From Candidatus Bathyarchaeia archaeon (GTDB taxonomy: Archaea > Thermoproteota > Bathyarchaeia > Bathyarchaeales > DTEX01), in NCBI GenBank assembly GCA_038882715.1, contig JAVZNR010000004.1, positions 46,809 to 110,808 of the forward strand: 64,000 bases of DNA, in the 5' to 3' direction. Below are positions 35,756-53,751 of this stretch, piece by piece (positions within the stretch are counted from its first letter, which is position 1; every line of letters starts with the position of its first letter). The position numbers and the translations under genes were made by a program. Below the pieces are notes generated by a model. It ran no database searches, had not been told where the DNA came from, and was given only the letters and a program-made list of their open reading frames with translations.

Positions 35756-35774
35756 GTAGAAGGGTGATTAAGGT

Positions 35775-39400: not shown

Positions 39401-39592
39401 CCATCGTGAATCATCAAAGTTGGGATCATAGGCTTCTAGGGCTTCACCTTGATAAAATTTCCAGGAAAGCTGGCTTCTGTACCCAGTTAAACTCTCGTAT
39501 CTTCTCCTTAAACCATCAACGATTTTTTCAAACGTTCCCTTGCTGTTATTCAGCGATGACCCTTCCTTCACGTGTTTTAGGGGGCAATTCAT
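36494..39592 (-). CDS. GH38 alpha-mannosidase
   Basis: 1032 aa with VAHAHIDMNWLW, PDTFGH and the QFHDILDGS context, all typical of GH38. Its ATG overlaps the upstream gene's TGA (ATGA at 39589..39592). Confidence 0.9.
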   Translation of the reverse strand: MNCPLKHVKEGSSLNNSKGTFEKIVDGLRRRYESLTGYRSQLSWKFYQGEALEAYDPNFDDSRWQQAKLPMVFDARKGEGWLRCKITVPEKIDGIEVPGSVVKLHSSAILGKSEVFVDGRRVLSADYWLELRPRVILDERTESGKTYVVAIHLFPKHEPIHVPQFYVTYSNIEKIAFEIESFIEEIRFARVLNKDFTDKILEKFDLSAIEGSFQHLLNEIDKVRREISPLSAEAKKFRVHLVAHAHIDMNWLWPWEDTLNTIKNTFSTMVNLMDKYGDFHFSQSQAVTYKTVEESFPDLFERIRQYVTRGNWDVTASMWVEADLNMAGTEALLRQFLYAKHYVYEKFNVKTEVCWEPDTFGHIWTLPQILRKFSIKYYYFMRCGKGHPIFWWEGPDGSRVLAFTSIYNNFVAPRNIIDLVLDLYERYGLKTSMFVYGAGDHGGGAMVEDIENTYEMRKKPTLPDLVFSSTHRFFNEVRKEIEDRGLLIPVINDELQFTFDGCYTTHGDVKKYNRLCESLLIDAEKICAITGSGDKSDLKGLWLKMLFNQFHDILDGSGSPEAYIYPINLYQETFEAAKNLIDLKVTNFSKKIKYSRAGIPIIVFNTLSWDRTDIVRVKVPKNLLPKNAVAISYDGKERRPIQIHEDELLFLASVPPLGYKVYYIVEEPSTEENSSSLLVQHNLLENDHFKIEINEGSGTIKTLYDKVNGRFVFKEERYPYTKPVFSNLMQILYETPHPMSAWIIGPISRVENLIRGAKTEVIEKGPVRATIKVSWKHSNSEITQYISLYNGLPRIDLRMLINWQELADDETDAPMLKVSYTPMLNMSKATFEIPFGYIERVPDGTEYPALRWVDLSDDEYGLSIISTCKHGFDVKGNTVRMTLVRTSYSPDPKPDQGIHEITYALYPHKNDWKRALTFRRGWELNHPLIAYAVPDRREHGSADEEMSFINVKPSNIVVSCFKEAEEGNSLVVRVYDASGEGGLMEIQFSFSVKEAYEADLMEEPIRPLETLDNKIRLQINPFEIKTLLIKPS

Positions 39593-40791
39593 TCAGGGAC
39601 ATTTATCCATCTGCCTTTCTCTGCGGAATCTAGTATTGCCTCCATAACCTCTTGGCACTTTAATCCATCATAGAAGGTTGCGCCTAAAGGTGCAATCGGC
39701 TTATCGTTAACTACGCAATCTATGAAGTGATGGATCTCATGGACAAATGTGTGCTCCCATCCAATTATGTGGCCGTGAGGCCACCAGTATTCGATATATG
39801 GATGAACGGTCTCCGTGACCAAGATATTTCTGAAACCCATTCTATCTGCAGGGTCTTTTCTCGAATATACTTCTAGCTCGTTTAGTCTCTCAAGGTTAAA
39901 GCATATTGTGCCCTCTGTGCCATGAATTTCTATTCTCTGGTAGTTTTTCCTTCCAGCGCAGAACCTTGAAGCCTCTAAGCTGCCTATCGCCCCATTCTTA
40001 AATCTGACAAGTGAGATGAAGGCGTCATCGACATCAACCTGCCCTTTCTTTGATGGGTCTTCTGGCAATGGACGTTCTTTAATAAATGTCTCCGTCATAC
40101 CGCAGACAGAGGAAATTTCCCCGATAAGGAACCTGGCCAAATCTATTATGTGTGAGCCTAAGTCCCCTAGGGCTCCTGCCCCCGCTACATCCTTACGAAG
40201 TCTCCAAACAAGTGGGAAATTGGGATCCATAATCCACTCCTGAAGGTAAACAGCTCTAAACTGTAGAATCTTTCCAATGTAACCCTCATCGATAAGTCTT
40301 TTAGATAATCTTATTGCCGGAACAAATCGGTAGTTGAAAGCCGTCATGTGTTTGACCCCGGCCTTCTCAGCCGCCCTATACATTTCTTCAGCTTCTTTCA
40401 CGGTGGTTGCCAGAGGTTTTTCGCAAAGAACATGCTTCCCACTTTCAGCAGCTTCGATAATTGGAGGGGCATGCATATTGTTCGGCAATCCGTTGTCCAC
40501 TATCTCAACGTTTTCGTCTTTAATCAGCGCCCTCCAGTCAGTATAATATTTCTCGAACCCATATCTTTTAGCGGCCTCAGCAACAGCTTTCTCAGTCCTT
40601 CCAAATATTGCTACTAATCTTGGCTTCGCAGGGGGAGGATAGAAGAATATTGGCATCTTTATATACGCGTTTGCGTGAGCTTTACCCATAAATGCGTAGC
40701 CAAGTAAGCCTACGCCTATCTCCTTAATCTCCTTCACTTCGCCTGCAACCTTACCCATCCTTACGAAACCTACTTCCTTCTCCTCAGGCAT
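39589..40791 (-). CDS. Gfo/Idh/MocA family NAD(P)-dependent oxidoreductase
   Basis: Rossmann-type N-terminus IGVGLLGYAFMGKAH, the GFO family motif LCEKPLA, and a C-terminal alpha/beta dimerisation domain. Confidence 0.85.
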   Translation of the reverse strand: MPEEKEVGFVRMGKVAGEVKEIKEIGVGLLGYAFMGKAHANAYIKMPIFFYPPPAKPRLVAIFGRTEKAVAEAAKRYGFEKYYTDWRALIKDENVEIVDNGLPNNMHAPPIIEAAESGKHVLCEKPLATTVKEAEEMYRAAEKAGVKHMTAFNYRFVPAIRLSKRLIDEGYIGKILQFRAVYLQEWIMDPNFPLVWRLRKDVAGAGALGDLGSHIIDLARFLIGEISSVCGMTETFIKERPLPEDPSKKGQVDVDDAFISLVRFKNGAIGSLEASRFCAGRKNYQRIEIHGTEGTICFNLERLNELEVYSRKDPADRMGFRNILVTETVHPYIEYWWPHGHIIGWEHTFVHEIHHFIDCVVNDKPIAPLGATFYDGLKCQEVMEAILDSAEKGRWINVPE

Positions 40792-40798
40792 CGCTATC

Positions 40799-41761
40799 TC
40801 ACCACCAAACCTTCTCTAATGGAGCTTTGATGATTAAAGGCTTTAAGAAAGCTATACATTTCTCGCAGCCATCTTCCCTGCTCATAACCGGATCTTCATG
40901 CTCATAGCTTAATACATAATCGTATCCAACCTCAACAAAAGCCGTCAATATCCTTTTCCAGTTCACGTCGCCCCAGCCGACGACACGAAATCTAAAACCT
41001 CTATCCGGTCTACGCCATGAGCCGGTAGGTATGCAACCAGATATTGGAAGATTCTCTTTAACAAGCTCAGCGTCTTTTGCGTGCGCATGGTAAATCCTGT
41101 CACCGAATTTTTTGATGAACACTACTGGATCAATGCCCTGCCAGACAAGATGGCTCGGGTCAAAATTAAAGCCGAACTCTTTCTTACCGTTTATGGCTTT
41201 AATCGCTCGTTCGGCTGTCTCAATATTATAAGCCTGCTCCTGCGGGTGAACTTCATGCGCGAACTTTACGCCGTGAGCCGCAAAATGATCTAGGATTTCT
41301 CCCCAGCGCTCAGCGAAAACCTCAAATCCCCTCTCAAAAATCTTCTCGTATGCTGGCGGAAAGATATACCATGCGCCCCAGTTTGGAGCCCCAATAAAAC
41401 CGTTTACTACAGGGACATCTAGAGCTGCGGCGGCTTCGGCCGTCTTCTTCATGCGCTCCACACCGTACTTAACTTTTTCCTCAGGGGTCCCCTTAAACCA
41501 TTCATCGGTCGACTCGTCGTGAGGGCCTAAAACAAGTTGTCCCTCGAGATGGTTGCTCAATGCTGAAATCATTAGACCATATTTCTCCACGGTCCTCTTG
41601 TATTCGGATGCGCCTCCACTAAGAATCTTCTCTATATTTATGTGATTGCTTCCTTTCCAAGCGGCTATCTCTACAGCCTCATAGCCAAGCTTTGAGACGT
41701 ATTCTAAGACTTTCTCGAGACTTAGCTCGTTGAACAGTATTGTGAATATACCTATCTTCAA
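40799..41761 (-). CDS. xylose-isomerase-like TIM barrel ('sugar phosphate isomerase/epimerase' family)
   Basis: GYEAVEI, HEVHP, NFDPSHL, YHAHAKD and SYEHED, the metal-ligand pattern of the AP-endonuclease-2/xylose-isomerase fold. It ends 7 nt upstream of the GFO gene. Confidence 0.85.
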   Translation of the reverse strand: MKIGIFTILFNELSLEKVLEYVSKLGYEAVEIAAWKGSNHINIEKILSGGASEYKRTVEKYGLMISALSNHLEGQLVLGPHDESTDEWFKGTPEEKVKYGVERMKKTAEAAAALDVPVVNGFIGAPNWGAWYIFPPAYEKIFERGFEVFAERWGEILDHFAAHGVKFAHEVHPQEQAYNIETAERAIKAINGKKEFGFNFDPSHLVWQGIDPVVFIKKFGDRIYHAHAKDAELVKENLPISGCIPTGSWRRPDRGFRFRVVGWGDVNWKRILTAFVEVGYDYVLSYEHEDPVMSREDGCEKCIAFLKPLIIKAPLEKVWW

Positions 41762-41821
41762 ATTAAACCCCCCATTCTGACAAAAATATTTATGCTGAAT
41801 GCTAATAAATATCTTTGGGAA

Positions 41822-42052
41822 CTAAAGATCGTCAACATCGGTAGCTTCTTCCTCTTCCTGTTTTTCATAGTTTTTCTCTAAGTAGTATCTTCTCGTTCTT
41901 ATATCGCAGCCGATTTTACCTTCCTCAAAGAGTTTACGCAGAGACCTAAAGACGGCTTTAGGCGCCTTATTTAATTTCTCAGCTATCTCCATTAGAGTTA
42001 AAGGTTCAGACTCCTTTAGAAGGCTTAAGATTTCATCTTCCAGTTTACCCAT
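41822..42052 (-). CDS. small winged-helix protein with acidic tail; candidate local regulator
   Basis: 76 aa, ILSLLKESEPLTLMEIAEKLNKAPKAVFRSLRKLFEEGKI. It sits at the head of the TIM-GFO-GH38 gene string and is divergent from the GFO gene at 42174. Confidence 0.5.
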   Translation of the reverse strand: MGKLEDEILSLLKESEPLTLMEIAEKLNKAPKAVFRSLRKLFEEGKIGCDIRTRRYYLEKNYEKQEEEEATDVDDL

Positions 42053-42173
42053 AAAGTAAACCTCCTTTTATCAGAGGATTATTATTGAAAATTTAAATCT
42101 TTAGCTTAGCCGACATTAGTTCAAACCCGTCTATCCATAATCCTTAAATTGGCATAAGGTTAATCTTAAACCC

Positions 42174-43319
42174 ATGGAAAAAATAAATATTGCATTAATA
42201 GGATGCGGTGGAATATCTAATGCGCACATTGGAGGGCTCCGCGCCCTAAGCACATCGGGACTAAAGATCTTTAACGTAAAAGCGGTATGTGACGTTGCTG
42301 AGAAAAACGCTGAAGAGAAGGCTAATTTAATCCATTATTTCCAGGATTCTAAACCGAGAGTCTACACAGATATCGATAGAATGCTTAGGGAAGAGAGCCT
42401 CGACGCTGTAGACATATGTTTACCGCACAACATACATCATACGGTAGCTTCTCAATGTTTAGAGAGAGGGCTACATGTAATTATCGAGAAGCCACTAGCG
42501 ATAACCATGAGGGCTGCAAAACGTATCATTGATGAAGCATCGAAACATAATAAGGTGCTGGCTGTCGCAGAGAATTATAGAAGAGCGCAAAAAGAGAGAG
42601 CTTTCTGGTGGGCTATAAGAGAAGGGCTGATCGGCGAGCCACGTATCGTCCTATGGTCTGCCATGAGCTGGGGTCCTAAGCCATGGGGCTGGAGAGAAGA
42701 TAAGTTTTCCGCTGGTGGAAGCTGGGTTTTTGATGGAGGTGTACATTGGGCGGATCTAGATAGATATCAGCTTGGTAGGGAGGCGATAGAAGTTTTCGCC
42801 ATGTGCCATACTTTTGACCCGGTTAAGGAGAATGTGAAAGTGACGGTTGACGACATGACCATAGCGATAATAAGATATGAAGGAAATGTTTTTTCTCAGT
42901 GGATCTGGACACGGGCAACGCCAGCTAAAAGGATCTACATGCACACCATATGTGGCTCAAAGGGAAACCTTTCAGATGATGGTATTCACCTGGAAACAGA
43001 ATATGGAAAAATTGAAACTAAATCTATAGATACGCTTGTAGAAGAGATGCGGAGAAACCTTCCTAAAGAAACCTTGGAGAAACTTTTCCCAAGAGGGATA
43101 ACTGATACATTTGCCATCGAGTTATACGATTTCTACGACTCGGTGGTCAGCAAAGGAAAACCTGAAGTTGACGCGATTGAAGCGTATAAAGACATGGCGA
43201 TACCTTTAGGCTTTTACGAGTCGGCCAAGCTAAACAAACCTGTCAGAGTTAAAGATGTTGAGGATTTACTCGTTGAAGAGTATCAGAAGGAGATAAATGA
43301 GAAACTCTCAATAACGTAA
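42174..43319 (+). CDS. Gfo/Idh/MocA family oxidoreductase
   Basis: INIALIGCGGISNAH and IIEKPLA, with a C-terminal GFO domain. Confidence 0.85.
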   Translation: MEKINIALIGCGGISNAHIGGLRALSTSGLKIFNVKAVCDVAEKNAEEKANLIHYFQDSKPRVYTDIDRMLREESLDAVDICLPHNIHHTVASQCLERGLHVIIEKPLAITMRAAKRIIDEASKHNKVLAVAENYRRAQKERAFWWAIREGLIGEPRIVLWSAMSWGPKPWGWREDKFSAGGSWVFDGGVHWADLDRYQLGREAIEVFAMCHTFDPVKENVKVTVDDMTIAIIRYEGNVFSQWIWTRATPAKRIYMHTICGSKGNLSDDGIHLETEYGKIETKSIDTLVEEMRRNLPKETLEKLFPRGITDTFAIELYDFYDSVVSKGKPEVDAIEAYKDMAIPLGFYESAKLNKPVRVKDVEDLLVEEYQKEINEKLSIT

Positions 43320-43372
43320 CCCCCTTATTTCTTTATAATCGAATATGGGGAAATTTTCGTCGCAAAAATAGG

Positions 43373-44578
43373 TTGCTCTCATTATTTTATCGTTGTTCTC
43401 AACTTTTTATACTTGAGGGAAAGTTAAGATACAAGCGTCCTAGAATTATATTTTTGGTGAAAATATTGGGAAAATGCTCAGTATGCGGCATTAGCTCGCC
43501 TCTAGTTTCCAGTAATCTAGGCGTATGCTCAAAATGCATAAAGGAGAAGCCAGAGGAAGCCCTAAAGGTGGTTAGCAGGGTACGCGAGGTTTCACGCAGA
43601 TCATTTAATCTACCATCAAGTGTACCAAAAAGCCCGGAAGGCGTAAAGTGTGGAATGTGCAGAAATGAATGCGCCATTCCTTCTGGAGAAAAAGGATTCT
43701 GCGGTCTCTCATATAATGTTGAAGGCTCCCTCACACGTCTAGGTGGAACGCCGGAGAAAGGTATTTTAGAATGGTACTATGACCCTTTGCCGACGAACTG
43801 CGTAGCATGGTGGTTTTGTCCTGGCTGCACAGGCGCTGGCTATCCGAAGTACGCTTATAAGCCAACTGCCGAGACTGGCTATATGAATCTCGCCGTCTTC
43901 TATGGTGCATGTAGCCTAGATTGCCTCTTCTGCCAAAACTGGCATTACAGAACTCTCTCTCAGAGACTAAGTCCCTATTTAAGCTGTGAGGAGTTAGCTG
44001 ACAAAGTTAATAGCAGGGTCTCATGCATATGCTTCTTTGGCGGAGACCCATCGGTTCAAATGCCCCATGCGTTAAAAACCAGCGAGATAGCGCTAAAAAA
44101 GGCTGAGGATGGAAAACGTATATTGAGGATATGTTGGGAAACAAATGGAAACATGAGTAAAAGTTTTGCTATTAAAGCAGCTGAATTATCGTTCAGGAGC
44201 GGCGGCATCGTAAAGTATGATCTAAAAGCATGGGACGAAAACATTTACAAAGCTCTATGCGGAGCCTCAAACAAGCCTTCCTTTGAAAATTTCAGAACTA
44301 TAGGCGAAAAGTACTTTAGGGAAAGACCGGAAGTCCCTGTTTTAACAGCAAGTACCCTTCTTATCCCAGGCTACATAGATCCCTCGGATGTTGAGGAGAT
44401 AGCTAAGTTTATTGCGAGCGTAGACCCAGATATCCCGTATACTCTGCTCGCGTTCTATCCGCAATACGTTATGAGCGACCTGCCAACTACAAGTAGAAAA
44501 CAAGCTTATGACTGCTATAACGCGGCGAAAAGATATCTTAGAAAAGTGAATATAGGAAATATTCATCTGCTCTCTTAG
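43373..44578 (+). CDS. radical SAM enzyme of the PflA / AmmeMemoRadiSam-like (COG1180-type) class with N-terminal Cys-rich region
   Basis: CSLDCLFCQNWHY (CxxxCxxC followed by QNW), upstream CGMCRNEC...FCG and a CSVCG...CSKC ribbon. There is no Cys-rich SPASM-type C-terminus. The start is uncertain (TTG in the ORF track). Confidence 0.75.
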   Translation: MLSLFYRCSQLFILEGKLRYKRPRIIFLVKILGKCSVCGISSPLVSSNLGVCSKCIKEKPEEALKVVSRVREVSRRSFNLPSSVPKSPEGVKCGMCRNECAIPSGEKGFCGLSYNVEGSLTRLGGTPEKGILEWYYDPLPTNCVAWWFCPGCTGAGYPKYAYKPTAETGYMNLAVFYGACSLDCLFCQNWHYRTLSQRLSPYLSCEELADKVNSRVSCICFFGGDPSVQMPHALKTSEIALKKAEDGKRILRICWETNGNMSKSFAIKAAELSFRSGGIVKYDLKAWDENIYKALCGASNKPSFENFRTIGEKYFRERPEVPVLTASTLLIPGYIDPSDVEEIAKFIASVDPDIPYTLLAFYPQYVMSDLPTTSRKQAYDCYNAAKRYLRKVNIGNIHLLS

Positions 44579-44589
44579 CCTGATTTTAT

Positions 44590-44611
44590 CTATGGATCAT
44601 TTTTCTATCCA
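44590..44611. promoter_or_regulatory. copy 1 of a 22-nt element containing the inverted repeat ATGGAT-N9-ATCCAT
   Basis: CTATGGATCATTTTTCTATCCA. It is 19/22 identical to 44767..44788. Confidence 0.4.
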
Positions 44612-44766
44612 TGAACGAAGCGTAAATCGACTCCTCCCCGATCGAGCGAAGCATTTTTGGACATAAAAAATGTCTATTAACGCGAAATCAAGCGGCACTT
44701 TCGTCTTAAGCGAACGACCTCCATGCGAAATGAATTCGAGCCTTCCTTAAAAGTGCTCTTTCTAAA

Positions 44767-44788
44767 CTATGGATTCTTCTTCTATCCA
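44767..44788. promoter_or_regulatory. copy 2 of the 22-nt element (TGGAT-N9-ATCCA), just upstream of a TATA-like box
   Basis: CTATGGATTCTTCTTCTATCCA. It ends 22 nt upstream of TTATATTA (44811..44818). Confidence 0.4.
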
Positions 44789-44810
44789 AACGGAGAAAAA
44801 TCTTAGTTAA

Positions 44811-44818
44811 TTATATTA
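44811..44818 (+). promoter_or_regulatory. TATA-like box for the TIM-barrel gene pair
   Basis: TTATATTA, 39 nt upstream of the ATG at 44857. This would place a start site near 44840 if archaeal -26 spacing applies. Confidence 0.3.
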
Positions 44819-44841
44819 GTTGAGTGTAAGAATAAAATGGT

Positions 44842-45708
44842 TTGAGGCATCTAAAAATGGTTAGGGTGTCCTGTAGTTTATGGGGTTATAGGGACTGGCC
44901 GCGAGAAAAAGCCCTAGAGGATATTGGAAAAATCGGATACAAAGGTGTTGAAATAGTTATGCATCATTTAGGGACTCCAATTGGCTACCATTTGAATCAG
45001 AATGCTCTTCCACTTAATAGCGAGGAGATGGATAAATTGAAGAGAGAGCTCAGCGAGAACAATCTTCGCATCGTCTGCCTATCTCCCTCAAGCGATTTCC
45101 TTGTACCTCCCAGCGTAAGACAGTTTGTGCCACACCTCCCTTCACCTGATGATGCTACAGTGTTAAGGAAAGTTATAGATCTTGCTGTTGAACTAGGGAA
45201 ACCCTTAGTTCGCCCATTTCCTTGCGCCGATAAACCTACCTATATGAGCATGGAAGAGGCTTTAAACGTTGTGATCCGTGGATTAAAAGATATAACGGCA
45301 TATGCAGCGTCCCTTGATGTTAAAATTGCGCTAGATGTTACACATAGCCGGGTAACCAACACCGTAAATAATGCCGTAAAAATACTTGAGAAGGTGGACT
45401 CAGATTATTTTGGATTTAACATTCACACCGTTGGCAAATTAGCGATTCTGCTGGCGGAAGCTCTCATCGCTAATGGTTGGGGCGATAAAATATTCCATAC
45501 GCACCTTCTTGATGCAAAAAGAATGCCAGGCAAACCATTTGGAGAACCAGTTCCACTCGGCGAAGGTGACAACTATATAGAGGAGTTTCTTATACTCCTT
45601 AAAGACGCAAAATATTCCGGCTGGTACAATTTTGAGGGAAAAAGAGAGGACGCAAAAGCTGCCCATGATTACTTAATTGGGAAAATTAAAGAATTAAATC
45701 TCCCATAA
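44842..45708 (+). CDS. xylose-isomerase-like TIM barrel protein
   Basis: GYKGVEI, LDVTH and FHTHLLD, the fold-typical metal-ligand spacing. The likely true start is the ATG at 44857 (MVRVSCSLWGY). Confidence 0.7.
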   Translation: MRHLKMVRVSCSLWGYRDWPREKALEDIGKIGYKGVEIVMHHLGTPIGYHLNQNALPLNSEEMDKLKRELSENNLRIVCLSPSSDFLVPPSVRQFVPHLPSPDDATVLRKVIDLAVELGKPLVRPFPCADKPTYMSMEEALNVVIRGLKDITAYAASLDVKIALDVTHSRVTNTVNNAVKILEKVDSDYFGFNIHTVGKLAILLAEALIANGWGDKIFHTHLLDAKRMPGKPFGEPVPLGEGDNYIEEFLILLKDAKYSGWYNFEGKREDAKAAHDYLIGKIKELNLP

Positions 45709-45745
45709 AAGTTTATCATGTGGCGCCTTAAAGGAGGACCCGCTT

Positions 45746-46684
45746 ATGATTAAACTTGCTCTATTTACGGTAACTTATTGCGGCTTATGGTATAGAGGGC
45801 GGGCTCTTTCACTTAGAGAACAGATAATTAAAGCCAAAGGCCTCGGGTTTGAAGGCATATCTATAGAGACGAAAAGACCCGTAGCGCTTCCATGCGACCT
45901 AAATAAAAAGGATAGAAAGGAAATAAAGGAGGTTGCGGACTCATATGGTGTTAAAATCTGCGCTATTGAAACAATGTCAAATTTCGCAAGGCCGCTCATA
46001 GAGGACAGAGAAAATAACCTTTGTATGGTTAAGGAAGCCATAGAGTTAGCAGCGGACTTAGAGGTTGATGTGGTTAAGGTTTTTGCCGCTTGGCCTGGAA
46101 CCAGCAGATATGATGGTCTTGGCACTTATGACTTTGGTCGAAGGATATTTGATTATGAAGGCAACTTTATAACTGATGTTGAGAGGTGGCGGCTGTGCGT
46201 TGAGGGAATTAGAGATGCAGCTAGGTGGGCAAAAGACTATGGTGTAAACATTGCGTTACAGAATCATCCACCAGTTATACGCTATGGATATGAAGACGCT
46301 CTTCAAATGGTTAAAGAAGTCAACGTGGAAAACGTAAAATTATGTTTGGACGTCCCATTGTTTTCTAATCAGAGTGATGAGTATATACATGAAGCGATTG
46401 AGGCTTGTAAAGATGTCGGCATAATTCTCTCACATTACGGCTCCCTAGACTTCGATGAGCTATCAAGCGGCGAAATCTTGATGCGTAGATACATAAATTA
46501 TCCAGCTTTCATAAGAGAGCTAAAAAGAATAGGTTATAATGGTTTTCTCGCATCTGAAGAATGTGCCCCAGTTCTAGAGAATCATGAGCACCAAGGTGTT
46601 GAAGTTGTAGATAGGCACGTAAAAGCGGCATTAAAATATATGAGGAAGCTACTATTAACCGGTGAAGAGCCCCCGGGTGATTAA
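45746..46684 (+). CDS. xylose-isomerase-like TIM barrel protein
   Basis: GFEGISIE, ALQNHP, LDVP and a C-terminal SEE motif; 312 aa. Confidence 0.75.
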   Translation: MIKLALFTVTYCGLWYRGRALSLREQIIKAKGLGFEGISIETKRPVALPCDLNKKDRKEIKEVADSYGVKICAIETMSNFARPLIEDRENNLCMVKEAIELAADLEVDVVKVFAAWPGTSRYDGLGTYDFGRRIFDYEGNFITDVERWRLCVEGIRDAARWAKDYGVNIALQNHPPVIRYGYEDALQMVKEVNVENVKLCLDVPLFSNQSDEYIHEAIEACKDVGIILSHYGSLDFDELSSGEILMRRYINYPAFIRELKRIGYNGFLASEECAPVLENHEHQGVEVVDRHVKAALKYMRKLLLTGEEPPGD

Positions 46685-46740
46685 CCCAAACACCCGAAAT
46701 AAATTGAATTAAAGACACTTAACTTAAAAAATGAGCCAAG

Positions 46741-47796
46741 TTAAAAATTGCTTTTCATGCTCTCTACAAGCTCTTTTTCTCCTCTTTCCTCAAAGAATCT
46801 CATCGCAGTGTCGACGTTTACTTTTCTTGGTTGTTTCCCCCAAAGTCTCTTAAAGTTCTCTGAATATATTTTCCTTAAAGTGTTCACTGGCAGTTTTAAA
46901 CCTATAAACGGTTCTTTATACCTTGTCAGTAATTCGTCCGCTGTTTCCGGAGTAAAGAACTCTTCATCCGACTCTAGGAATTTCCTAACTATCCATATTC
47001 TAGCGACCGCTTCGACCTCCGTCTGCCACGTTGCAATATCTGTTCCAAAAAATATTCTGTCCTGATATTTTATGAAGAAGTCTCTCCAATCATCCCTCCT
47101 ACGCGAAATATTATATATGAGCTCTATTCCCGGAGTTAAATCAAGGTTAGCATTCTTATGGCGGTTAAGAAAGTCGGCTGCCTCTTCAAGATTCGCTGAC
47201 ATAAAGTAGAAGTGACATAGAACTATCTTCAAGCGTGGATGCCTATCTAGGATATCTTCCATCTCCCTATAGAGCTCCTCCTTCAACGGGTAGTCTCCGC
47301 CATAGTAAACCCAACCCCTTTTCTTAGCCCATTCTGGAGCTAGATTTTCATCCCAGAACTCTTCTGGGTCGGCAACATGGCATAAGACTGGAAAACCGTA
47401 GGATTCGCAAGCACCCCAAAAACCCTCATAGTACCCGCTGTTCAGCGGCACATGTATCCTTTTTGGAACCGGCTTCGAACCCATTTCTCCGACGCCGTCA
47501 AAACCTGCTTCGATTAAAGAGCGAATGTAGTTGTCCCAGTTGACATTAGGCATGCTACCTGTGCCGCCTGACCAAGGCACAAACCCACCAGCATAAAATA
47601 AGCCAGGGTACTTTAACTTCAAATATATTCCAGCATCACCTCCAGTTACATAAATCTTGTTGAGTCTGCCTTCTTCAGCCACTTTAACCATAAACTCAGC
47701 CATTCTCTTCAGGTTCGCGTTATTGCGCCAGTCATCAAAATGGACGTGGCAGTCGATAACAGGTAGATCGGCAAACTCGGATAAATATGGATGCAA
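46741..47796 (-). CDS. amidohydrolase-superfamily TIM-barrel metal hydrolase (Amidohydro_2-like; lactonase/decarboxylase/isomerase type)
   Basis: VIDCHVHF (HxH), VLCHV, VLCHFY and FFGTD, the ligand order of the amidohydrolase fold. Confidence 0.7.
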   Translation of the reverse strand: MHPYLSEFADLPVIDCHVHFDDWRNNANLKRMAEFMVKVAEEGRLNKIYVTGGDAGIYLKLKYPGLFYAGGFVPWSGGTGSMPNVNWDNYIRSLIEAGFDGVGEMGSKPVPKRIHVPLNSGYYEGFWGACESYGFPVLCHVADPEEFWDENLAPEWAKKRGWVYYGGDYPLKEELYREMEDILDRHPRLKIVLCHFYFMSANLEEAADFLNRHKNANLDLTPGIELIYNISRRRDDWRDFFIKYQDRIFFGTDIATWQTEVEAVARIWIVRKFLESDEEFFTPETADELLTRYKEPFIGLKLPVNTLRKIYSENFKRLWGKQPRKVNVDTAMRFFEERGEKELVESMKSNF

Positions 47797-47905
47797 GACT
47801 TTTTCGCCTCCATTAAACTAAAACACCCCTTAATCTTAAAGGGGCGCTCCGAATATAAAATGCTTAATACTCATAATTAATTATTTTAGAATCAGAGTCA
47901 ATTTA

Positions 47906-48832
47906 ATGTTGCTTACGGTTGTGGTGATGTATTTGATGAGAATCGGAATAATTGGTTTTGATACTTCTCACGCTGTAGAATTTACGAAGCGCATAAACCA
48001 CATAGGTATATCTGAGGACCATTGGGTCTACGGCGCGAAAGTAACAGTAGGTTGCCCCTGCGGACCCTCAAGTTTTGCCAGCGAAGATATAATTGCGCAG
48101 AGAACGCAAGCTCTCAGGGAATTTGGCGTTGAAATAGTAGATTCTCCCGAAGAAGTTATTGGTAAAGTTGATGCAATTATGATAGAGCTACAGGAGGGTG
48201 ATTTACATTTGAAGATCGTTGAGCCCTTCCTAGAGGCAGGCATACCCTCATTCATAGATAAGCCGCTCGCATGCAGCGTAGCTGATGCAAAAAAGATTTT
48301 TGAATTAGCCCATCTTTATAATACTCCAGTCTTCTCATCATCGTCGCTTCGCTATGCTCCTGAGGTTCAGGAACTAAAGTCTAGGGAAGACTTAGGTAAG
48401 GTTTTAGGAGCCGAGACATATTCGCCCGCAATCCTAAATCCAAAGAACCCTGGGCTCTTCAATTACGGCATTCATGGTATAGAGATGCTATACACTATTA
48501 TGGGAAATGGCTGTAAGTCAGTTAGATGCGTCCATAAAGAGGGGTGGGATGTCGTCATCGGCACATGGCATGACGACCGAATAGGAATTTTCAGAGGGAT
48601 ACGAAAAGGTCCGCATGTCTACGGCTTCACAGCTTTTTGCGAGAGAGATGTGGTCTCCTCCAGCATAAACACACAATACATTTATAGGGAACTGTTAAAG
48701 AGGGTTATTGAAATGTTTAAAACGCGTAAAATGCCAGTAACTCCGGAGGAGACCATTGAAATTATCGCTTTTATTGAAGCAGCATTAAAGTCTGCTGAAA
48801 GAAAGTCCAGAGAAATAGCGTTGCGTTTTTAA
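47906..48832 (+). CDS. GFO-like oxidoreductase (divergent)
   Basis: MRIGIIGFDTSHAVEF and FIDKPLA. The probable true start is the ATG at 47936. Confidence 0.6.
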   Translation: MLLTVVVMYLMRIGIIGFDTSHAVEFTKRINHIGISEDHWVYGAKVTVGCPCGPSSFASEDIIAQRTQALREFGVEIVDSPEEVIGKVDAIMIELQEGDLHLKIVEPFLEAGIPSFIDKPLACSVADAKKIFELAHLYNTPVFSSSSLRYAPEVQELKSREDLGKVLGAETYSPAILNPKNPGLFNYGIHGIEMLYTIMGNGCKSVRCVHKEGWDVVIGTWHDDRIGIFRGIRKGPHVYGFTAFCERDVVSSSINTQYIYRELLKRVIEMFKTRKMPVTPEETIEIIAFIEAALKSAERKSREIALRF

Positions 48833-48895
48833 AACCCTTAATAATTTGATTTGAGCTCTATAAACATATTTACTTAGCCTTAGATAGTAACAGAT

Positions 48896-50263
48896 ATGGA
48901 GTCAAACGTAAATATTAGGGAGATATCTCTGAGCTACGTATCCTATAATTTTAGAACCCCGCTGAAATTCGGCTCAGTTATCGTTAATGAATCGGTTTCT
49001 CTGATCGCTAAAGTTCTAGTTAAGAGGAAGGGGGGTGGTGAAGCTGAAGGCATCGGGTCTATGCCCCTCATGTGCGAATGGGCTTTTCCAGATCCAAAAG
49101 TAGAGCACGAAGATAAGCTTGAAGCAATGAAACTCGTAGCTGAAAAGTACGCTGAGACTATAGAGGAAGAGTCCGGCAGCGGCATTTATCTACATCCTAT
49201 AGATTGGTTCATGAGGTTTGAGGATGAAATATTAAGGATAACTCATTATGTTTCTGAAAGTTTTAAGCTAAAGGCTCCTTTGCCAGTCTTAGCGTCTCTA
49301 GTGGCGGTATCACCTATAGATGCTGCTATTCACGATGGTTTTGGTAAAGTCAACAATATATGTAGCTATGATGGTTACGGACCCAAGTATATGGAGAGAG
49401 ATTTAAGCTATTATCTCGGATCAAAATTTAGGGGCAAATATATTTCTGATTATATAAAGCCAAGATACGAGGAAAAGATACCGGTTTTCCATCTCGTTGG
49501 AGGGCTAGATAAGCTCACTAAAGATGAGATAAGTCCCGAGGATCCTAAGGATGGTTTCCCTGTCAGCCTAGAAGAATGGATCGAGAGGGATGGCGTCTTC
49601 TGCTTTAAAATAAAGCTAAATGGCGTAGATATAGATTGGGATGTGGAGAGAACTAAGACTGTAGCTAGAATCGCCGAAGAAAAACTTGAGGAGAAGTTCG
49701 GCAGAAATGAATACTTTCTTTCGGTTGACTCAAATGAAATGCATAAATCACCTGATGATGTTCTTGAGTATCTTAGAAGAATTAAGAGGGAAGCCCCGGA
49801 CGTTTTTGAGAGGATACTTTACATAGAGCAGCCGGTCAACAGAGATCTAGAGAAATATAGGTTTAATATGATGTTGGTGTCAGCGATTAAGCCGGTGTTG
49901 GCTGATGAGGGAGTCATCAATATAGGCAGCTTCGACTTGGCCTTAAGCCTAGGATGGTCTGGCGTGGCTCTAAAAACTTGTAAATGTCATAGCTCAGCCC
50001 TGCTACTAATGGCTAAAGCCGAAGAGGCTGGAGTCCCCTACAGCGTTCAAGATTTAACGTGTTCAGGCTTAGCCTTAGTGCATTCGGCTGGTTTTGCTTC
50101 TAGGATAAACCCCATAAAAGGATTTGAATATAATGCTAGGCAGTATCTTCCACTAGCTTTCCCAGAGGTTCAGGGAAAATATGAGGAGTTGTTTAATGTT
50201 AGAAATGGTTTTATAAGGACGGGTATACTTAATGGGTCTCTTGGTTTAGGTTTATCACTTTAG
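48896..50263 (+). CDS. enolase-superfamily protein, MLE-subgroup-like residue set
   Basis: K238-x-K240 (FKIKLNG), D278 (SVDSNE), E311 (YIEQP), D337 (LADEG) and K360/K363 (ALKTCKC), with spacing as in MLE/dipeptide-epimerase type enzymes. The N-terminal capping region is long (~230 aa). Confidence 0.65.
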   Translation: MESNVNIREISLSYVSYNFRTPLKFGSVIVNESVSLIAKVLVKRKGGGEAEGIGSMPLMCEWAFPDPKVEHEDKLEAMKLVAEKYAETIEEESGSGIYLHPIDWFMRFEDEILRITHYVSESFKLKAPLPVLASLVAVSPIDAAIHDGFGKVNNICSYDGYGPKYMERDLSYYLGSKFRGKYISDYIKPRYEEKIPVFHLVGGLDKLTKDEISPEDPKDGFPVSLEEWIERDGVFCFKIKLNGVDIDWDVERTKTVARIAEEKLEEKFGRNEYFLSVDSNEMHKSPDDVLEYLRRIKREAPDVFERILYIEQPVNRDLEKYRFNMMLVSAIKPVLADEGVINIGSFDLALSLGWSGVALKTCKCHSSALLLMAKAEEAGVPYSVQDLTCSGLALVHSAGFASRINPIKGFEYNARQYLPLAFPEVQGKYEELFNVRNGFIRTGILNGSLGLGLSL

Positions 50264-50275
50264 AGGTGTTCATCT

Positions 50276-51301
50276 GTGAGCGATAAAATTAAGATAGGAA
50301 TTATAGGCGCGGGATCGCATGCAGTTAAAGTACACTATCCCTCGCTTGCAAGCTTCACCGATGTGGAGCTGAAGGCTGCTTGTGATCTAAACGAGGATAG
50401 ACTCAAATTAGTTAGCGGGAAATATTGTATAGAAAGCGTATTTAGAGACTATAAGGAAATGCTCAGCAAAGTACCTTTAGATGCTGTTTACGTTATCATG
50501 GCACCTATACCGACCAGCTTCTATGCGGGCGCTGAACCCATGTTTTCAATAGTTCTTGAATGCCTTAAACGCGGGCTCCATGTTTTTGTGGAGAAACCTC
50601 CTGGAATCACGTCTTCTGAGACTGAAAAGATGGCTGAAGCCGCGAAGAAGAATGAGTGTAGAAGCATGGTTGGATTCAATAGGCGGTTTATACCAGTATT
50701 CAAGAGAGCTAAAGCCATAGTTGAAGAGTATGGTCAGATAACTCATTGCTCTGCAGTCTTTCACAAAAATGCTTTGAATGAGAGCCAGCCATGGGGATCG
50801 GTAAGCCACCTTGTAGCTGACGTAATACATGCCGTCGATGCTTTAAGGTTTATGGGTGGAGAGCCGGAAAAGGTTGCGAGCTATTTTTCGAGCTTTTACA
50901 CGGATTATCCAAACAGCTTTAACGCTCTGCTTATTTTTAGTAATGGCTGCGTAGGTCATTTATGCTCAAACTATTCTTCTGGCGGACGGGTACACTATTT
51001 TGAGATGCATTCGAGAGGAATATACGCCATGGTAGATTTGCCTCTGGAGCCGCCTGAAAAACAGCTAGCCTATATACTTAGGGAGAATAAGCCTTATGGG
51101 GAAATGGAGATAATAAAAAATCTTGACCTCGTAGATGGGGTCAGAGACTTTCACGTAACTTACGGGTTCCTCCAGGAAAATAGGCATTTCATAGACTGTA
51201 TTAAAAGCGACATAGAACCTGAAACCAACTTCGAAGACGCCGTTAAAACCATGAAACTCGTAGAGCTCATAAGTGCGTCAACAATAGAAAAAGTATTTTA
51301 A
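50276..51301 (+). CDS. Gfo/Idh/MocA family oxidoreductase
   Basis: GTG start. IKIGIIGAGSHA and FVEKPPG, with a GFO C-terminal domain. Confidence 0.8.
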   Translation: MSDKIKIGIIGAGSHAVKVHYPSLASFTDVELKAACDLNEDRLKLVSGKYCIESVFRDYKEMLSKVPLDAVYVIMAPIPTSFYAGAEPMFSIVLECLKRGLHVFVEKPPGITSSETEKMAEAAKKNECRSMVGFNRRFIPVFKRAKAIVEEYGQITHCSAVFHKNALNESQPWGSVSHLVADVIHAVDALRFMGGEPEKVASYFSSFYTDYPNSFNALLIFSNGCVGHLCSNYSSGGRVHYFEMHSRGIYAMVDLPLEPPEKQLAYILRENKPYGEMEIIKNLDLVDGVRDFHVTYGFLQENRHFIDCIKSDIEPETNFEDAVKTMKLVELISASTIEKVF

Positions 51302-51330
51302 TGGCATTTTTAGGGAGGTGATCTACAGTA

Positions 51331-52134
51331 ATGATGCTCGTATTATTTTCTAAAATGTTTCAGTCAATGCCCATGGAAAGGTTCGCGGATCTCGCAGCCA
51401 ATATGGGTTTCGAGGGAATCGATTTAACAGTTAGGCCAGAAGGGTATATAGAGCCTAGAGATGTGCCGGAAAAACTTCCTGAAGCCATAAGAATATTTGA
51501 AGGAAAGGGGTTAAGCGTGCCCATGATAACGACATCTATAACATCGGCGGATGAACCATATGCTGAAGAAACTTTCTCTACCGCGTCAAACATGGGAATA
51601 AAATATATTAAGCTCGGATACTGGAGGTATAGGGGTTTCGGTAACATTAGAAAGCAGATTGAGGAAGTTCGTGGAAAACTTAAAGGAATCGAAAAACTCT
51701 GCGAAAACTACGGGGTGACTGCCGGATTACATATACACTCAGGCATGTTTGCAACAGCTGAGCCAGCAATAGTATATCTTATGCTTAATGGATTCGAGCC
51801 AAAGTATATTGGCGCATATATAGACCCCGGTCATATGGCTGTTGAAGGCGGACTTGCGGGGTGGCTGATGGGCATGGATATCCTCTCTGATAGAATAGTC
51901 ATGGTCGCTGTGAAGGATTTCGGCTGGTTTAAGACTAGTCAGGGATGGGTTGCAAATACTGTTCCTCTTGGTGAAGGGTTAGTTCCTTGGAAAGAAGTTT
52001 TTAAAATACTTAAAGACATAAAATTTCATGGTCCAATATCGCTTCACAGCGAGTACCATGAAAGTCTTGAGAGGATAATAGAGATCACTAGAAGAGACTT
52101 AGCATATGTGAAGCACATTCTCAACAAATTATGA
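51331..52134 (+). CDS. xylose-isomerase-like TIM barrel protein
   Basis: GFEGIDL, GLHIHSG, IDPGH and LHSEY. Confidence 0.75.
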   Translation: MMLVLFSKMFQSMPMERFADLAANMGFEGIDLTVRPEGYIEPRDVPEKLPEAIRIFEGKGLSVPMITTSITSADEPYAEETFSTASNMGIKYIKLGYWRYRGFGNIRKQIEEVRGKLKGIEKLCENYGVTAGLHIHSGMFATAEPAIVYLMLNGFEPKYIGAYIDPGHMAVEGGLAGWLMGMDILSDRIVMVAVKDFGWFKTSQGWVANTVPLGEGLVPWKEVFKILKDIKFHGPISLHSEYHESLERIIEITRRDLAYVKHILNKL

Positions 52135-52153
52135 GCTCGGGGAGATGGATTGA

Positions 52154-53170
52154 GTGGGCAGGAAAATCAGAGTTTTAATAACGATTCCCAGAGAGCTGTA
52201 TGCGCAACTCTCAAGGATGGAGGATGAAGACAAGCTTCGGGAGTTTGCTGATGTTGAATTTAATCCGTATAGTAGGAATTTAAGTGAGGACGAGCTTGCA
52301 GACTTTATAAAAGGCGTTGATGGCTGCATAACTAGCTGGGGTTCTCCGAGGTTCACTAAGAAAGTTTTAGACAAAGCCGATAAACTTAAGATCATAGGTC
52401 ATGCTGCGGGAAGCGTGAAGCCATACGTTACAGATGAAGTTTTCAAGAGAGGCATAGTGGTTGTTAATGCTGCATCAGCTATAGCCATCGGAGTCGCCGA
52501 GTTCACTTTAGCCATGATTTTAAACTGTTTAAGGGCTATACCGCAGCATATAAGCGCCATGCGGAGAAGAGACTGGAGATATAAGGAAGCGAGATCCGGG
52601 GAAACCTTCGACCTCAGAAATAAGGTTATAGGTTTGATTGGATTTGGCGCGGTTGCTCGTGAGCTCGTTAACCTTCTTAAACCATTTAATGTCAGAATTC
52701 TAGTTTTTGATCCATATGTATCAGTTGAGGAGTTAAGGAAGTACAGTGTAGAGAAATCCGATTTAGACCACTTGCTGTCAAATTCCGATATAGTTAGCTT
52801 GCATGCGGCTCTAACACCTGAAACATATCATATGATAGGTGAAAGGGAGCTTAAAATCATGAAGCCGACATCTTTCCTCATAAATACTGCGAGAGGCGCA
52901 TTAGTAGACGAGAGATCTTTATGCAAAGCCCTAAGAGAAAGATGGATAGCGGGGGCGGCATTAGATGTTTTTGAAGAGGAGCCTTTGCCACCGGAAAGCC
53001 CGCTCTATGATTTAGATGAGAACGTTTTTCTCACGCCACACGTAGCAGGTCTATCCGATGAGAGAAGAAGCATGTTATTCGGCGTTATTGTGGAAGATTT
53101 TAGAAGGTTCTTTTCTGGCGAGAAGCCACTAAATACCATAGACTATACGAGACTTAGTTTCCTAGCATAG
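52154..53170 (+). CDS. D-isomer-specific 2-hydroxyacid dehydrogenase family (glyoxylate/hydroxypyruvate reductase or PGDH-like)
   Basis: GLIGFGAVAREL (NAD loop), INTARG, ALDVFEEEP and TPHVAG (catalytic His context). Confidence 0.85.
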   Translation: MGRKIRVLITIPRELYAQLSRMEDEDKLREFADVEFNPYSRNLSEDELADFIKGVDGCITSWGSPRFTKKVLDKADKLKIIGHAAGSVKPYVTDEVFKRGIVVVNAASAIAIGVAEFTLAMILNCLRAIPQHISAMRRRDWRYKEARSGETFDLRNKVIGLIGFGAVARELVNLLKPFNVRILVFDPYVSVEELRKYSVEKSDLDHLLSNSDIVSLHAALTPETYHMIGERELKIMKPTSFLINTARGALVDERSLCKALRERWIAGAALDVFEEEPLPPESPLYDLDENVFLTPHVAGLSDERRSMLFGVIVEDFRRFFSGEKPLNTIDYTRLSFLA

Positions 53171-53307
53171 ATGCTCTAGAGGAGACAACAGCGATTTCAC
53201 AGCGCTTGCTATAAATTTGATCATAATCTTTTTCTCGACAAGAAAAGATTATGCCAAGTGATTCTTCTCTCTCGGTTCATCTTGACAAACGCATGTGTGG
53301 TGAGAGA

Positions 53308-53751
53308 TCAGTATATCAGTAGGCTTTCATTCCACATCCTTAATAATCTATCACATTCATTCTTAACTTCCAGCTTTCGACTCTTCTCCCCCAATTTCTT
53401 AAGGAACTCTATGCGTTTTTCAAATGATTTAAGCTCCAGTAGACCAGCGTGATACGACTCTATGCGCTCTTCCTCAAGCTGCATCTGTACGTAGTAAGCC
53501 TCTTGAATAAATCTGCCAGCTGCGTCAACCGGGTTTTCAACAGCGTACTTATTTGCCCAGATTGTCGCTTCAGAGACTCTCAGCTGCGTTAAACCATTAA
53601 TCTCCCTTATACAATAAATATAGGTTCTTAAGAAGTCATAGTAGCCGGCGGTCTTAATGAGTTTAAGGGCTTTACGCACCATCGCCTTGAAGTCAGAGCT
53701 CCCCTCAATTCTCAAGCGGTGGACTTCGCCAATTTTTACTGTCTTCCCCAA
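53308..53751 (-). CDS. hypothetical protein
   Basis: 147-aa ORF with no competing gene. No motif recognised. Confidence 0.4.
   Translation of the reverse strand: MGKTVKIGEVHRLRIEGSSDFKAMVRKALKLIKTAGYYDFLRTYIYCIREINGLTQLRVSEATIWANKYAVENPVDAAGRFIQEAYYVQMQLEEERIESYHAGLLELKSFEKRIEFLKKLGEKSRKLEVKNECDRLLRMWNESLLIY

Follow-up and report, generated by a model that had tools for sequence, protein, structure and literature searches.

Gene Content of the Locus

The stretch analysed here (64,000 nucleotides of contig JAVZNR010000004.1 from a Candidatus Bathyarchaeia archaeon, hereafter the 64-kb window) contains a 12.5-kb cluster of sugar oxidoreductase and TIM-barrel genes. Gene content was read from the list of open reading frames (ORFs) and from Pfam scans of the window. 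Four genes encode GFO_IDH_MocA-type oxidoreductases (PF01408, cut-off 24 bits): GFO1 (39589-40791, minus strand, 86.7 bits), GFO2 (42174-43319, plus strand, 82.9 bits), GFO3 (47906-48832, plus strand), and GFO4 (50276-51301, plus strand, 66.5 bits). GFO3 matched over the N-terminal domain only and is the weakest of the four (40.1 bits); it and GFO4 were assigned to the family by weak NCBIfam and Pfam profiles. Four further genes encode xylose-isomerase-like TIM barrels (PF01261, cut-off 31.1 bits): TIM1 (40799-41761, minus strand, 129 bits), TIM2 (44842-45708, plus strand, 99 bits), TIM3 (45746-46684, plus strand, 96 bits), and TIM4 (51331-52134, plus strand, 78 bits). The intergenic gaps of GFO1/TIM1, GFO4/TIM4, and the tandem TIM2/TIM3 are 7, 29, and 37 nucleotides (nt), respectively. 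A GH38 glycosidase lies on one side of the cluster and an Opp/Dpp-class ABC importer on the other. The eight genes, the 7- and 29-nt gaps, the TIM2/TIM3 tandem, and the flanking glycosidase and importer had been described in an earlier reading of the letters (the sequence-only reading). The present analysis adds five genes of the region, which encode a small winged-helix regulator (wHTH), a radical SAM protein, an Amidohydro_2 protein, an enolase-superfamily enzyme (Enol), and a D-2-hydroxyacid dehydrogenase (2HADH). The sequence-only reading had taken the cluster for one iterated, multi-module system; we find a mosaic of at least three unrelated cassettes.

No other ORF of at least 250 amino acids (aa) in the window carried a GFO or PF01261 domain above the Pfam cut-off, and the UxuA protein gave a sub-threshold PF01261 match only. 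The chance of finding eight such genes within 12 of about 58 genes is ~1e-5, so chance clustering is unlikely. All TIM-TIM and GFO-GFO pairs were less than 30% identical, and several were barely detectable by BLAST. Tandem duplication as the origin of the eight genes was therefore ruled out, and different subfamilies have been brought together. For TIM2, GFO3, and the radical SAM protein, gene callers chose shorter starts, giving 283 aa, 298 aa, and 370-373 aa, respectively.

The archaeal origin proposed earlier was borne out. The window sequence is identical to contigs of several NCBI Bathyarchaeia metagenome-assembled genomes (MAGs), for example GCA_038867805.1, and it encodes deoxyhypusine synthase, Trm1, an archaeal-type L3, and archaeal ribosomal proteins. 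Rfam and tRNA scans of the window gave no matches. Scanning for sigma-70 promoters and terminators, which is uninformative for an archaeon, turned up no more sites than shuffled sequence did.

GFO1 Resembles Levoglucosan Dehydrogenase

GFO1 aligned over its full length with levoglucosan dehydrogenase (LGDH; PDB 6a3f, E 4e-112, 46% identity) and with the uncharacterised protein 4h3v (E 5e-109, 46% identity). Its match to the scyllo-inositol/L-glucose dehydrogenase 5ya8 was weaker (E 5e-57), and the PDB scores were 379 bits for LGDH versus 197 bits for inositol dehydrogenase. On the IolG model GFO1 scored 142 bits against a cut-off of 355 bits. The proposed catalytic residues of LgdA are Glu103, inside the conserved EKP motif, and His193 (PMC10066097). 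In the alignment with 6a3f, GFO1 keeps both the EKP glutamate (CEKPLA) and the His193 equivalent (GDLGSH). In LGDH the NAD-selecting Glu43 sits at the end of β2 (PMC11612644); at this position GFO1 has Gly followed by Arg, the same as in 4h3v, which hints at NADP(H) or dual cofactor use.

GFO1 nevertheless falls outside the true LgdA group on three counts. Its score on the NCBIfam LevoglcsnDh equivalog NF052479 was 435.6 bits, below the cut-off of 650 bits. Its 46% identity to PpLGDH is well short of the ~70% at which characterised LGDHs and true LgdA proteins cluster (PMC10066097). In a neighbour-joining tree, GFO1 grouped with homologues from Bathyarchaeia, Atribacterota, Dictyoglomota, Chloroflexota, Armatimonadota, and Actinomycetota, apart from both PpLGDH and 4h3v. 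By sequence homology, GFO1 is thus best described as an LGDH-like, probably NAD(P)-dependent sugar dehydrogenase and a candidate C3 oxidase.

TIM1 Resembles a 3-Keto-Glycal Hydratase

TIM1 matched SCO6571 (2zds) at E 4e-60 and, at E 5e-28, AtHYD (8ro4), which is the 2-hydroxy-3-keto-glucal hydratase of Agrobacterium. The AtHYD alignment is essentially full-length (residues 15-313 versus 24-325) at less than 30% identity. It is also specific: the next functional classes appeared at ~1e-4 or weaker (AtOGE, 8bvk, 3e-4; IolE, 6e-4), and the score for AtHYD was 101 bits versus 22 bits for IolE. Within the TIM1 family E170, H172, D201, H204, H225, H227, K229, D230, and E287 are invariant, a set typical of metal-dependent barrels of the xylose-isomerase-like fold. 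The length of TIM1 is close to that reported for LgdB2-type proteins (~325 aa), which is suggestive, as LgdB2 was compared by its reported length only. TIM1 is paired with the putative sugar 3-dehydrogenase well beyond this window, in the order TIM1-then-GFO1 at more than 25 archaeal and bacterial loci. We therefore regard TIM1 as an AtHYD/SCO6571-type barrel and a candidate 3-keto-sugar eliminase/hydratase.

Composition and Conservation of Cassette A

Cassette A consists of wHTH-TIM1-GFO1-GH38 and the divergently transcribed GFO2. Its first gene encodes the 76-aa wHTH (41822-42052, minus strand; read from the translation, with weak HTH_5/MarR matches). Its last gene encodes a 1032-aa alpha-mannosidase with Pfam GH38 N-terminal, middle, and C-terminal domains (36494-39592, minus strand), whose start overlaps the GFO1 stop by 4 nt. 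This translational coupling suggests an alpha-mannoside-containing substrate. On the MngB model the GH38 protein showed a weak score of 119 bits against a cut-off of 1138 bits.

Neighbours within 10 kb were examined at 80 loci obtained by scanning a genome collection with GFO1; individual loci are denoted below by L and a number. About 13 Bathyarchaeia species keep the TIM1-then-GFO1 order. Among bacteria, thermophiles included, it recurred in Dictyoglomota, Chloroflexota, Oceanobacillus, Rubrobacter, and Actinomycetota. Bacterial TIM1 homologues were 37-41% identical, rising to 67% in a Dictyoglomota MAG. TIM1 was the only widely recurrent neighbour of GFO1. The wHTH and radical SAM genes recurred in Bathyarchaeia, with wHTH directly upstream of TIM1 in 10 other species, and GH38 and GDPD genes recurred in closer relatives. 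GH38 followed in six genomes (loci including L007, L009, L097, L098, and L100), and the GDPD gene that adjoins it was kept in L007, L009, L097, and L098. A GH172 gene was found near a GFO1 homologue at one locus only (L007). No recurrence near GFO1 was seen at these loci for GFO2, TIM2, TIM3, TIM4, Amidohydro_2, GFO3, Enol, or GFO4.

A separate GFO2 scan was run on metagenomes and yielded the relative L097. GFO2 showed only generic PDB matches (~1e-19 to 1e-21). In L097 and L098 its orthologue is a neighbour of cassette A, and L100 has it inserted between GFO1 and GH38, so GFO2 is a reasonable candidate for an LgdC-like 3-keto-sugar reductase.

The radical SAM protein, which has a Cys-rich N-terminus (43373-44578, plus strand, PF04055), scored below all NCBIfam cut-offs. 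Its gene lies beside HTH-TIM1-GFO1 in about 11 Bathyarchaeia species, where the genes travelling with it look by eye like nadX, an H+-pyrophosphatase, a class II amidotransferase, and nadC. Its membership in the pathway was rejected as unproven, given these housekeeping-like neighbours and, in L020 and L029, a separation of 6 kb between it and the pair. The gene probably lies outside the pathway and is a neighbour by synteny.

Further genes accompany the TIM1-GFO1 pairs of Chloroflexota and Rubrobacter (L023, L026, L034, and L037). By eye they seem to encode a 247-aa TIM barrel, ThuA-like proteins, additional GFOs, and a beta-glycosidase of family GH1, a combination that would fit 3-keto-sugar metabolism. 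The 247-252-aa TIM protein beside Chloroflexota GFO1 homologues has no homologue in the window.

Proposed Route for Cassette A

Cassette A is the only part of the cluster that is homologous to the bacterial routes in which a glycoside or anhydro-sugar is cleaved by oxidation, elimination, hydration, and reduction. From these homologies we infer a plausible route. GFO1 would oxidise C3 of a pyranoside or anhydro-sugar. [quoted passage not shown] Finally the 3-keto-sugar would be reduced by GFO2, or by GFO1 working in reverse. The substrate may be exposed by, or associated with, the action of the alpha-mannosidase. LgdB2 is reportedly a bifunctional eliminase/hydratase and LgdA possibly reversible (PMC7676230, PMC10066097), so a dehydrogenase and one TIM barrel can form a complete unit.

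TIM2 and TIM3

The TIM2 family is tiny, with 10 clusters in 5.8 billion proteins, and a PDB sequence search with TIM2 gave no matches. Its structure model (predicted local distance difference test, pLDDT, 87.7) is a generic xylose-isomerase-like barrel. Foldseek was discarded as a clue to its function, because it returned a flat list of epimerases and isomerases across the superfamily with no discriminating power. In the contexts examined, TIM2 orthologues never occurred with TIM3: one context has an aminotransferase gene alongside, and another a different GFO, adjoining a sulfatase and a GFO-TIM pair. In the archaeal locus L089 (8807-14577), and also in L090, the TIM2 orthologue directly follows an unrelated 381-aa GFO, and a second GFO-TIM pair and a sulfatase come next; GFO-TIM pairs thus recur in such archaea in other combinations. 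One near-identical MAG (GCA_038830345.1; L003 5083-5935) has TIM2 split into two called ORFs (104 and 177 aa), a sign of a frameshift or pseudogene unless the assembly is at fault.

The TIM3 family is larger (788 homologues from archaea and bacteria). Its profile matched tagatose 3-epimerase in the PDB at 6e-10, followed by Art22, MJ1311, and IolI, and it reached the C-deglycosidases 7bvr and 7xrf only at E 0.03-0.08. TIM3 is accordingly nearest, by profile, to ketose-3-epimerase/IolI/MJ1311-like barrels. It stood alone, with neither a GFO nor TIM2, in three other genomes. By profile-profile alignment (hhalign), TIM2 and TIM4 lie closer to the TIM1 family (E 1e-14 and 1e-13, respectively) than to TIM3 (2e-9). 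In these alignments the positions of the conserved Glu and His residues of TIM1 are partly substituted.

The sequence-only reading had compared the TIM2/TIM3 tandem with the heteromeric DgpB/DgpC arrangement. Such a heteromer is unsupported, because the orthologues occur apart, and we treat TIM2 and TIM3 as stand-alone epimerase/isomerase-like barrels. The Dgp/Car heteromer itself is made of one TIM barrel and a small non-TIM subunit, not of two TIM barrels.

Cassette C and the Amidohydro_2 Protein

Cassette C is the run GFO3-Enol-GFO4-TIM4-2HADH, with tight gaps of 63, 12, 29, and 19 nt, and its core is the Enol-TIM4-2HADH triad. Enol is a 455-aa enolase-superfamily enzyme of the muconate lactonizing enzyme (MLE) subgroup type (48896-50263, plus strand, PF13378). 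2HADH (52154-53170, plus strand; Pfam 2-Hacid_dh_C, 193 bits) resembles PGDH and glyoxylate reductase with scores below their cut-offs.

More than 1500 homologues make up the Enol family, most of them from Bathyarchaeia and Thermoproteota. Identities among the top 120 ran from 51 to 100%, and the named organisms among these were Bathyarchaeia, Thermoproteota, Nitrososphaerota, or Crenarchaeota. No NCBIfam match was obtained for Enol, and a PDB sequence search gave only spurious designed repeat proteins. Invariant residues in the alignment are K238/K240, D278, E311, D337/E338, and K360/K363. Enol thereby shows the features of the MLE subgroup, namely a KxK motif at the end of β2, D/E/D metal ligands, a Lys at the end of β6, and a capping-plus-barrel fold. 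Its AF2 model (pLDDT 92.8) gave dipeptide epimerases and muconate lactonizing enzymes as the top Foldseek matches, with 3,6-anhydro-L-galactonate cycloisomerase (5xd9) at rank 26.

In three distant Thermoproteota/Bathyarchaeia contigs (L091-L093), Enol orthologues were flanked by orthologues of TIM4 (44-61%) and 2HADH (39-68%). The triad spans 48896-53170 in the window, 4946-9186 in L091, 2743-8359 in L092, and 3351-6734 in L093, sometimes accompanied by a CN_hydrolase or a GFO4 orthologue; the latter (47%) lies near the triad in L093. As the conserved partners of TIM4 are Enol and 2HADH, its adjacency to GFO4 is secondary, and the earlier view of GFO4/TIM4 as a glycoside-cleaving module is not supported. 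The best NCBIfam match of GFO4 was IolG (99 bits against a cut-off of 355 bits). The TIM4 profile matched the PDB weakly (4kw2, 4e-6; MJ1311 and IolE, 1.6e-4). In GFO3, a divergent GFO-like protein, the EKP motif reads DKP and the glycine (dinucleotide-binding) loop, GIIGFDTSHA, is degenerate; from these motifs, the protein may bind its cofactor in an unusual way or be non-catalytic.

The Amidohydro_2 protein (46741-47796, minus strand, PF04909, 50 bits) had no NCBIfam match. By analogy with known PF04909 sugar lactonases, we assume it to be a candidate sugar lactonase or lactone isomerase. A GFO of cassette C could oxidise a sugar at C1 and the Amidohydro_2 protein would handle the resulting lactone; Enol would carry out ring-opening or dehydration, and TIM4 and 2HADH would isomerise and reduce a keto-acid. 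On analogies with Amidohydro_2-type sugar lactonases and lactone isomerases, with MLE-type cycloisomerases of lactones or anhydro-sugar acids, and with aldose 1-dehydrogenases of the GFO family, cassette C most likely processes a sugar acid or lactone rather than cleaving a glycoside, a suggestion with weak support.

A Variable Island

The relative L097 shares ~80% nucleotide identity with the window and is collinear with 34164-44790, after which it jumps to 53308-53718 and 60389-61710. As compared over L097 10607-14969, it lacks both the TIM2-to-2HADH block (window 44791-53307) and the Opp operon (53900-60388). The 12.5-kb juxtaposition is thus a recent, species-level arrangement in a variable region. 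No convincing flanking repeats or IS elements were found around the inserted block.

The Opp/Dpp-class ABC importer (53921-60301, minus strand) is made up, by Pfam, of a family-5 binding protein and two each of ATPases and permeases, and may be specific for sugars. By eye, the genes that L097 carries in its place are unrelated to sugar transport and resemble those of a SIS-domain fusion, a PfkB-like kinase, a HAD hydrolase, a GNAT protein, and an M20 peptidase. The radical SAM/TIM2 spacer holds two copies (44590-44611 and 44767-44788) of a 22-nt sequence with an internal palindrome, CTATGGAT...ATCCA, and the collinearity with L097 stops just past the second of them. The sequence may serve as an operator or a terminator, or mark an island boundary. 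Two ORFs had no Pfam match: a 147-aa ORF at 53308-53751, which is kept in L097 (73% identity), and a 327-aa ORF at 21885-22868.

Comparison with Known Systems

Among known systems, cassette A comes closest to the lgd pathway and to the OGE/HYD operon of Agrobacterium. The lgd pathway (LgdA/LgdB1/LgdB2/LgdC of Bacillus smithii, Pseudarthrobacter, and Paenarthrobacter; PMC7676230, PMC10066097) likewise combines a GFO dehydrogenase with a ~320-aa PF01261 barrel and a second GFO nearby, in a sequence of oxidation, elimination/hydration, and reduction. Unlike it, cassette A is linked with a mannosidase of family GH38 and with an archaeal wHTH, its host is an anaerobic hot-spring archaeon, and its GFO1 belongs to a separate clade. 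An LgdB1-type eliminase (~275 aa), which lies next to lgdA in 253 of 265 loci (PMC10066097), was not recognised in the window, where no LgdB1 sequence entered the comparison. The Agrobacterium tumefaciens GlycDH/AtOGE/AtHYD/Gfo operon (PMC10628242; 8bvk, 8ro4) shares a clear AtHYD homologue, TIM1, which is here adjoined by the reductase candidate GFO2. It differs in using the FAD-dependent oxidase GlycDH where cassette A has an NAD(P)-dependent GFO, and its AtOGE-type eliminase was not found in the window.

The Bacteroides/Alistipes BT2156-2160/AL1-5 pathway also acts by stepwise oxidation, elimination, and hydration with GFO 3-dehydrogenases and a sugar-phosphate-isomerase-type TIM protein, and it handles alpha-mannosides as well (bioRxiv 10.1101/2024.03.25.586180). 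The BT_2158 and BT_2159 models, in contrast, gave only 31-42 bits in the window against cut-offs of 650-750 bits, no DUF1080 protein was detected by Pfam, and the N-termini of the proteins show neither signal peptides nor a periplasmic organisation. The Dgp/Car systems (DgpA/DgpBC, CarA/CarBC; 7xr9, 7xrf, 7bvr) also pair a GFO oxidoreductase with a PF01261 TIM-barrel lyase. Here DgpA-type matches were generic (~1e-19 to 1e-20), TIM3 and TIM4 profiles reached 7bvr and 7xrf at E 0.03-0.25, and no small second subunit (DUF6379-type) was detected in the region by Pfam.

Inositol catabolism (IolG/IolE/IolI/IolO) uses the same two families, with a dehydrogenase followed by beta-elimination of water or by epimerisation beside the ketone. 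The best window scores were 142 bits for IolG (cut-off 355), 41 bits for IolE (cut-off 290), and 37 bits for IolO (cut-off 300), and iolB, iolC, and iolD are absent from the 64-kb window. Clean mapping of the modules onto IolG/IolE/IolO, which would have spoken against the sequence-only reading, was accordingly not seen, all scores being far below the curated cut-offs. Searches of the kind proposed there matched GFO1 with LGDH and TIM1 with AtHYD, and none of the modules matched the Iol, Dgp/Car, or BT2156-2160 models.

Sugar-acid and lactone routes that combine an MLE-type cycloisomerase with an Amidohydro_2 protein are known, e.g., the galactarolactone isomerase and cycloisomerase Gli/Gci of Agrobacterium, and 3,6-anhydro-L-galactonate cycloisomerase. 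The cassette C region resembles them in bringing together dehydrogenases, an Amidohydro_2 protein, and an MLE-type enolase-superfamily enzyme. It differs in that there is no sequence-level match, Enol is ~90 aa longer, and the conserved pairing of Enol with a TIM barrel and a 2-hydroxyacid dehydrogenase is not known from those routes.

Other Carbohydrate Genes in the Window

A UxuA mannonate dehydratase gene (29153-30229) lies directly after the L3-L4-L2 ribosomal protein genes, with the gene of an RraA-like aldolase convergent to it (together 29153-30959). This pair could belong to an oxidative route for mannose or hexuronate. Further carbohydrate genes are scattered at 2161-3498, 13390-18434, 19251-20156, and 32948-34036; they encode a DUF6298/apiosidase-like protein, a GH57 protein with two GT4 proteins, an alpha-L-fucosidase of family GH29 (a short ORF of 301 aa), and a GH172 (DUF2961) protein, respectively.

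Interpretation of the Cluster

We lean towards reading the locus as a composite sugar-catabolic island, in which cassette A would perform oxidative cleavage, cassette C would act on a sugar acid or lactone, and TIM2 and TIM3 would work on their own. Homologies, gene order, and the island structure are observed; all substrates and reaction steps are inferences. The oxidative glycoside-cleavage modules of the sequence-only reading are thus supported for GFO1/TIM1, through the homology to 6a3f and 8ro4 and the conserved adjacency, and not for the other three. A further-reaching version is possible but rather doubtful. In it, wHTH-TIM1-GFO1, with or without GFO2, would be the first archaeal non-Koshland cleavage of glycosides or anhydro-sugars by oxidation, elimination/hydration, and reduction, horizontally shared with thermophilic Dictyoglomota, Atribacterota, and Chloroflexota and joined here to GH38; the Enol-TIM4-2HADH triad would be a new sugar-acid/lactone ring-opening pathway.

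Several observations weigh against the composite reading. GFO1 resembles LGDH no more closely than it does the uncharacterised 4h3v and has a clade of its own, so its C3 regiochemistry is assumed. No eliminase of the LgdB1/AtOGE type was identified in the window (AtOGE, 8bvk, matched TIM1 at 3e-4; no LgdB1 sequence entered the comparison). The GH38 linkage is confined to closer relatives, and most GFO2 orthologues occur apart from GFO1 and TIM1 in other sugar contexts, as judged by eye. For cassette C the sugar-acid view consists of family-level analogies only, and Enol matches no characterised dehydratase or cycloisomerase by sequence. No protein of these clades has an enzyme activity on record.

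The strongest competitor accepts cassette A as a functional unit and denies it glycosidic cleavage. It would then be either a cyclitol pathway of the IolG/IolE kind, possibly fed by GDPD, or a pair for epimerisation or isomerisation of a keto-sugar, resembling E. coli YcjS/YcjR, which act by C3 oxidation, TIM-barrel epimerisation, and reduction. GFO1 does match 5ya8 and the IolG model, TIM1 weakly matches IolE, the GDPD gene is conserved next to GH38 in four loci, and epimerases, YcjR among them, share the xylose-isomerase-like fold. Loss and regain of water by way of a 2-hydroxy-3-keto-glycal could in principle also interconvert the mannose and glucose configurations, which would fit GH38. 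We nonetheless find this explanation unlikely, as GFO1 and TIM1 score far higher with LGDH and AtHYD than with inositol dehydrogenase and IolE, the IolG, IolE, and IolO scores are 3- to 8-fold below their cut-offs, and iolB, iolC, and iolD are missing from the window. GFO aldose dehydrogenases acting with enolase-superfamily dehydratases are established in archaeal pentose oxidation, e.g., Haloferax Gfo6/XacD. Most or all of the GFOs here could similarly be aldose 1-dehydrogenases of a non-phosphorylative oxidation, for example of mannose or fucose released by GH38 and GH29. The Amidohydro_2 protein would be the lactonase, Enol or UxuA the aldonate dehydratase, the RraA-like protein and 2HADH would act downstream, and the TIM barrels would isomerise keto-acids or ketoses. 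The NF041392 match (98 bits) agrees with this, the Amidohydro_2, Enol, and 2HADH genes all lie inside the cluster, and UxuA (219.2 bits) passes its NCBIfam subfamily cut-off of 191 bits and adjoins the RraA-like gene. The scheme is improbable, since it leaves the conserved TIM1-GFO1 pairing and the TIM1/AtHYD homology unexplained, Enol is of the MLE type and not of a known aldonate dehydratase type, and UxuA and RraA lie 9 kb away beyond housekeeping genes.

We give still less credence to the view closest to the sequence-only reading, in which all four GFO/TIM pairings form one multi-substrate, hydrolase-independent system for glycosides and C-glycosides with a Dgp-like TIM2/TIM3 heteromer. 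The tight clustering of the two families (P ~1e-5) between a glycosidase and an importer, the LGDH and AtHYD homologies, the remote relationship of TIM2 and TIM4 to the TIM1 family, and the two side-by-side GFO-TIM pairs of the archaeal locus L089 all speak for it. They are outweighed by the conserved partnership of TIM4 with Enol and 2HADH, the separate occurrence of TIM2 and TIM3, often with no GFO nearby, and the missing block in the close relative. TIM2, TIM3, and TIM4 moreover show no specific relation to AtOGE, AtHYD, the Dgp/Car enzymes (DgpC/CarB), or the BT/AL TIM proteins, and neither a DUF6379-type small subunit nor a DUF1080 lyase was detected by Pfam.

Significance

Our literature search found no paper linking oxidative GFO/TIM glycoside cleavage to archaea, and the LgdA survey lists bacterial phyla only (PMC10066097). 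Within the locus, cassette A is a new archaeal member, of a distinct subfamily, of a known type of system. To our knowledge, descriptions of an oxidative, hydrolase-independent cleavage of glycosides and anhydro-sugars by GFO enzymes and TIM-barrel lyases or hydratases are confined to bacteria. The locus also calls for caution, because adjacency of a GFO and a TIM-barrel gene alone does not make a 3-keto-glycoside module: TIM4 belongs to an enolase-superfamily cassette. This Enol-TIM4-2HADH cassette is common in Thermoproteota and uncharacterised, which makes it attractive for enzyme discovery. As carbon degraders, Bathyarchaeia are both abundant and uncultured, and a conserved LGDH/AtHYD-like operon in many of their species would add a glycan-processing route that surveys based on carbohydrate-active enzymes (CAZymes) miss.

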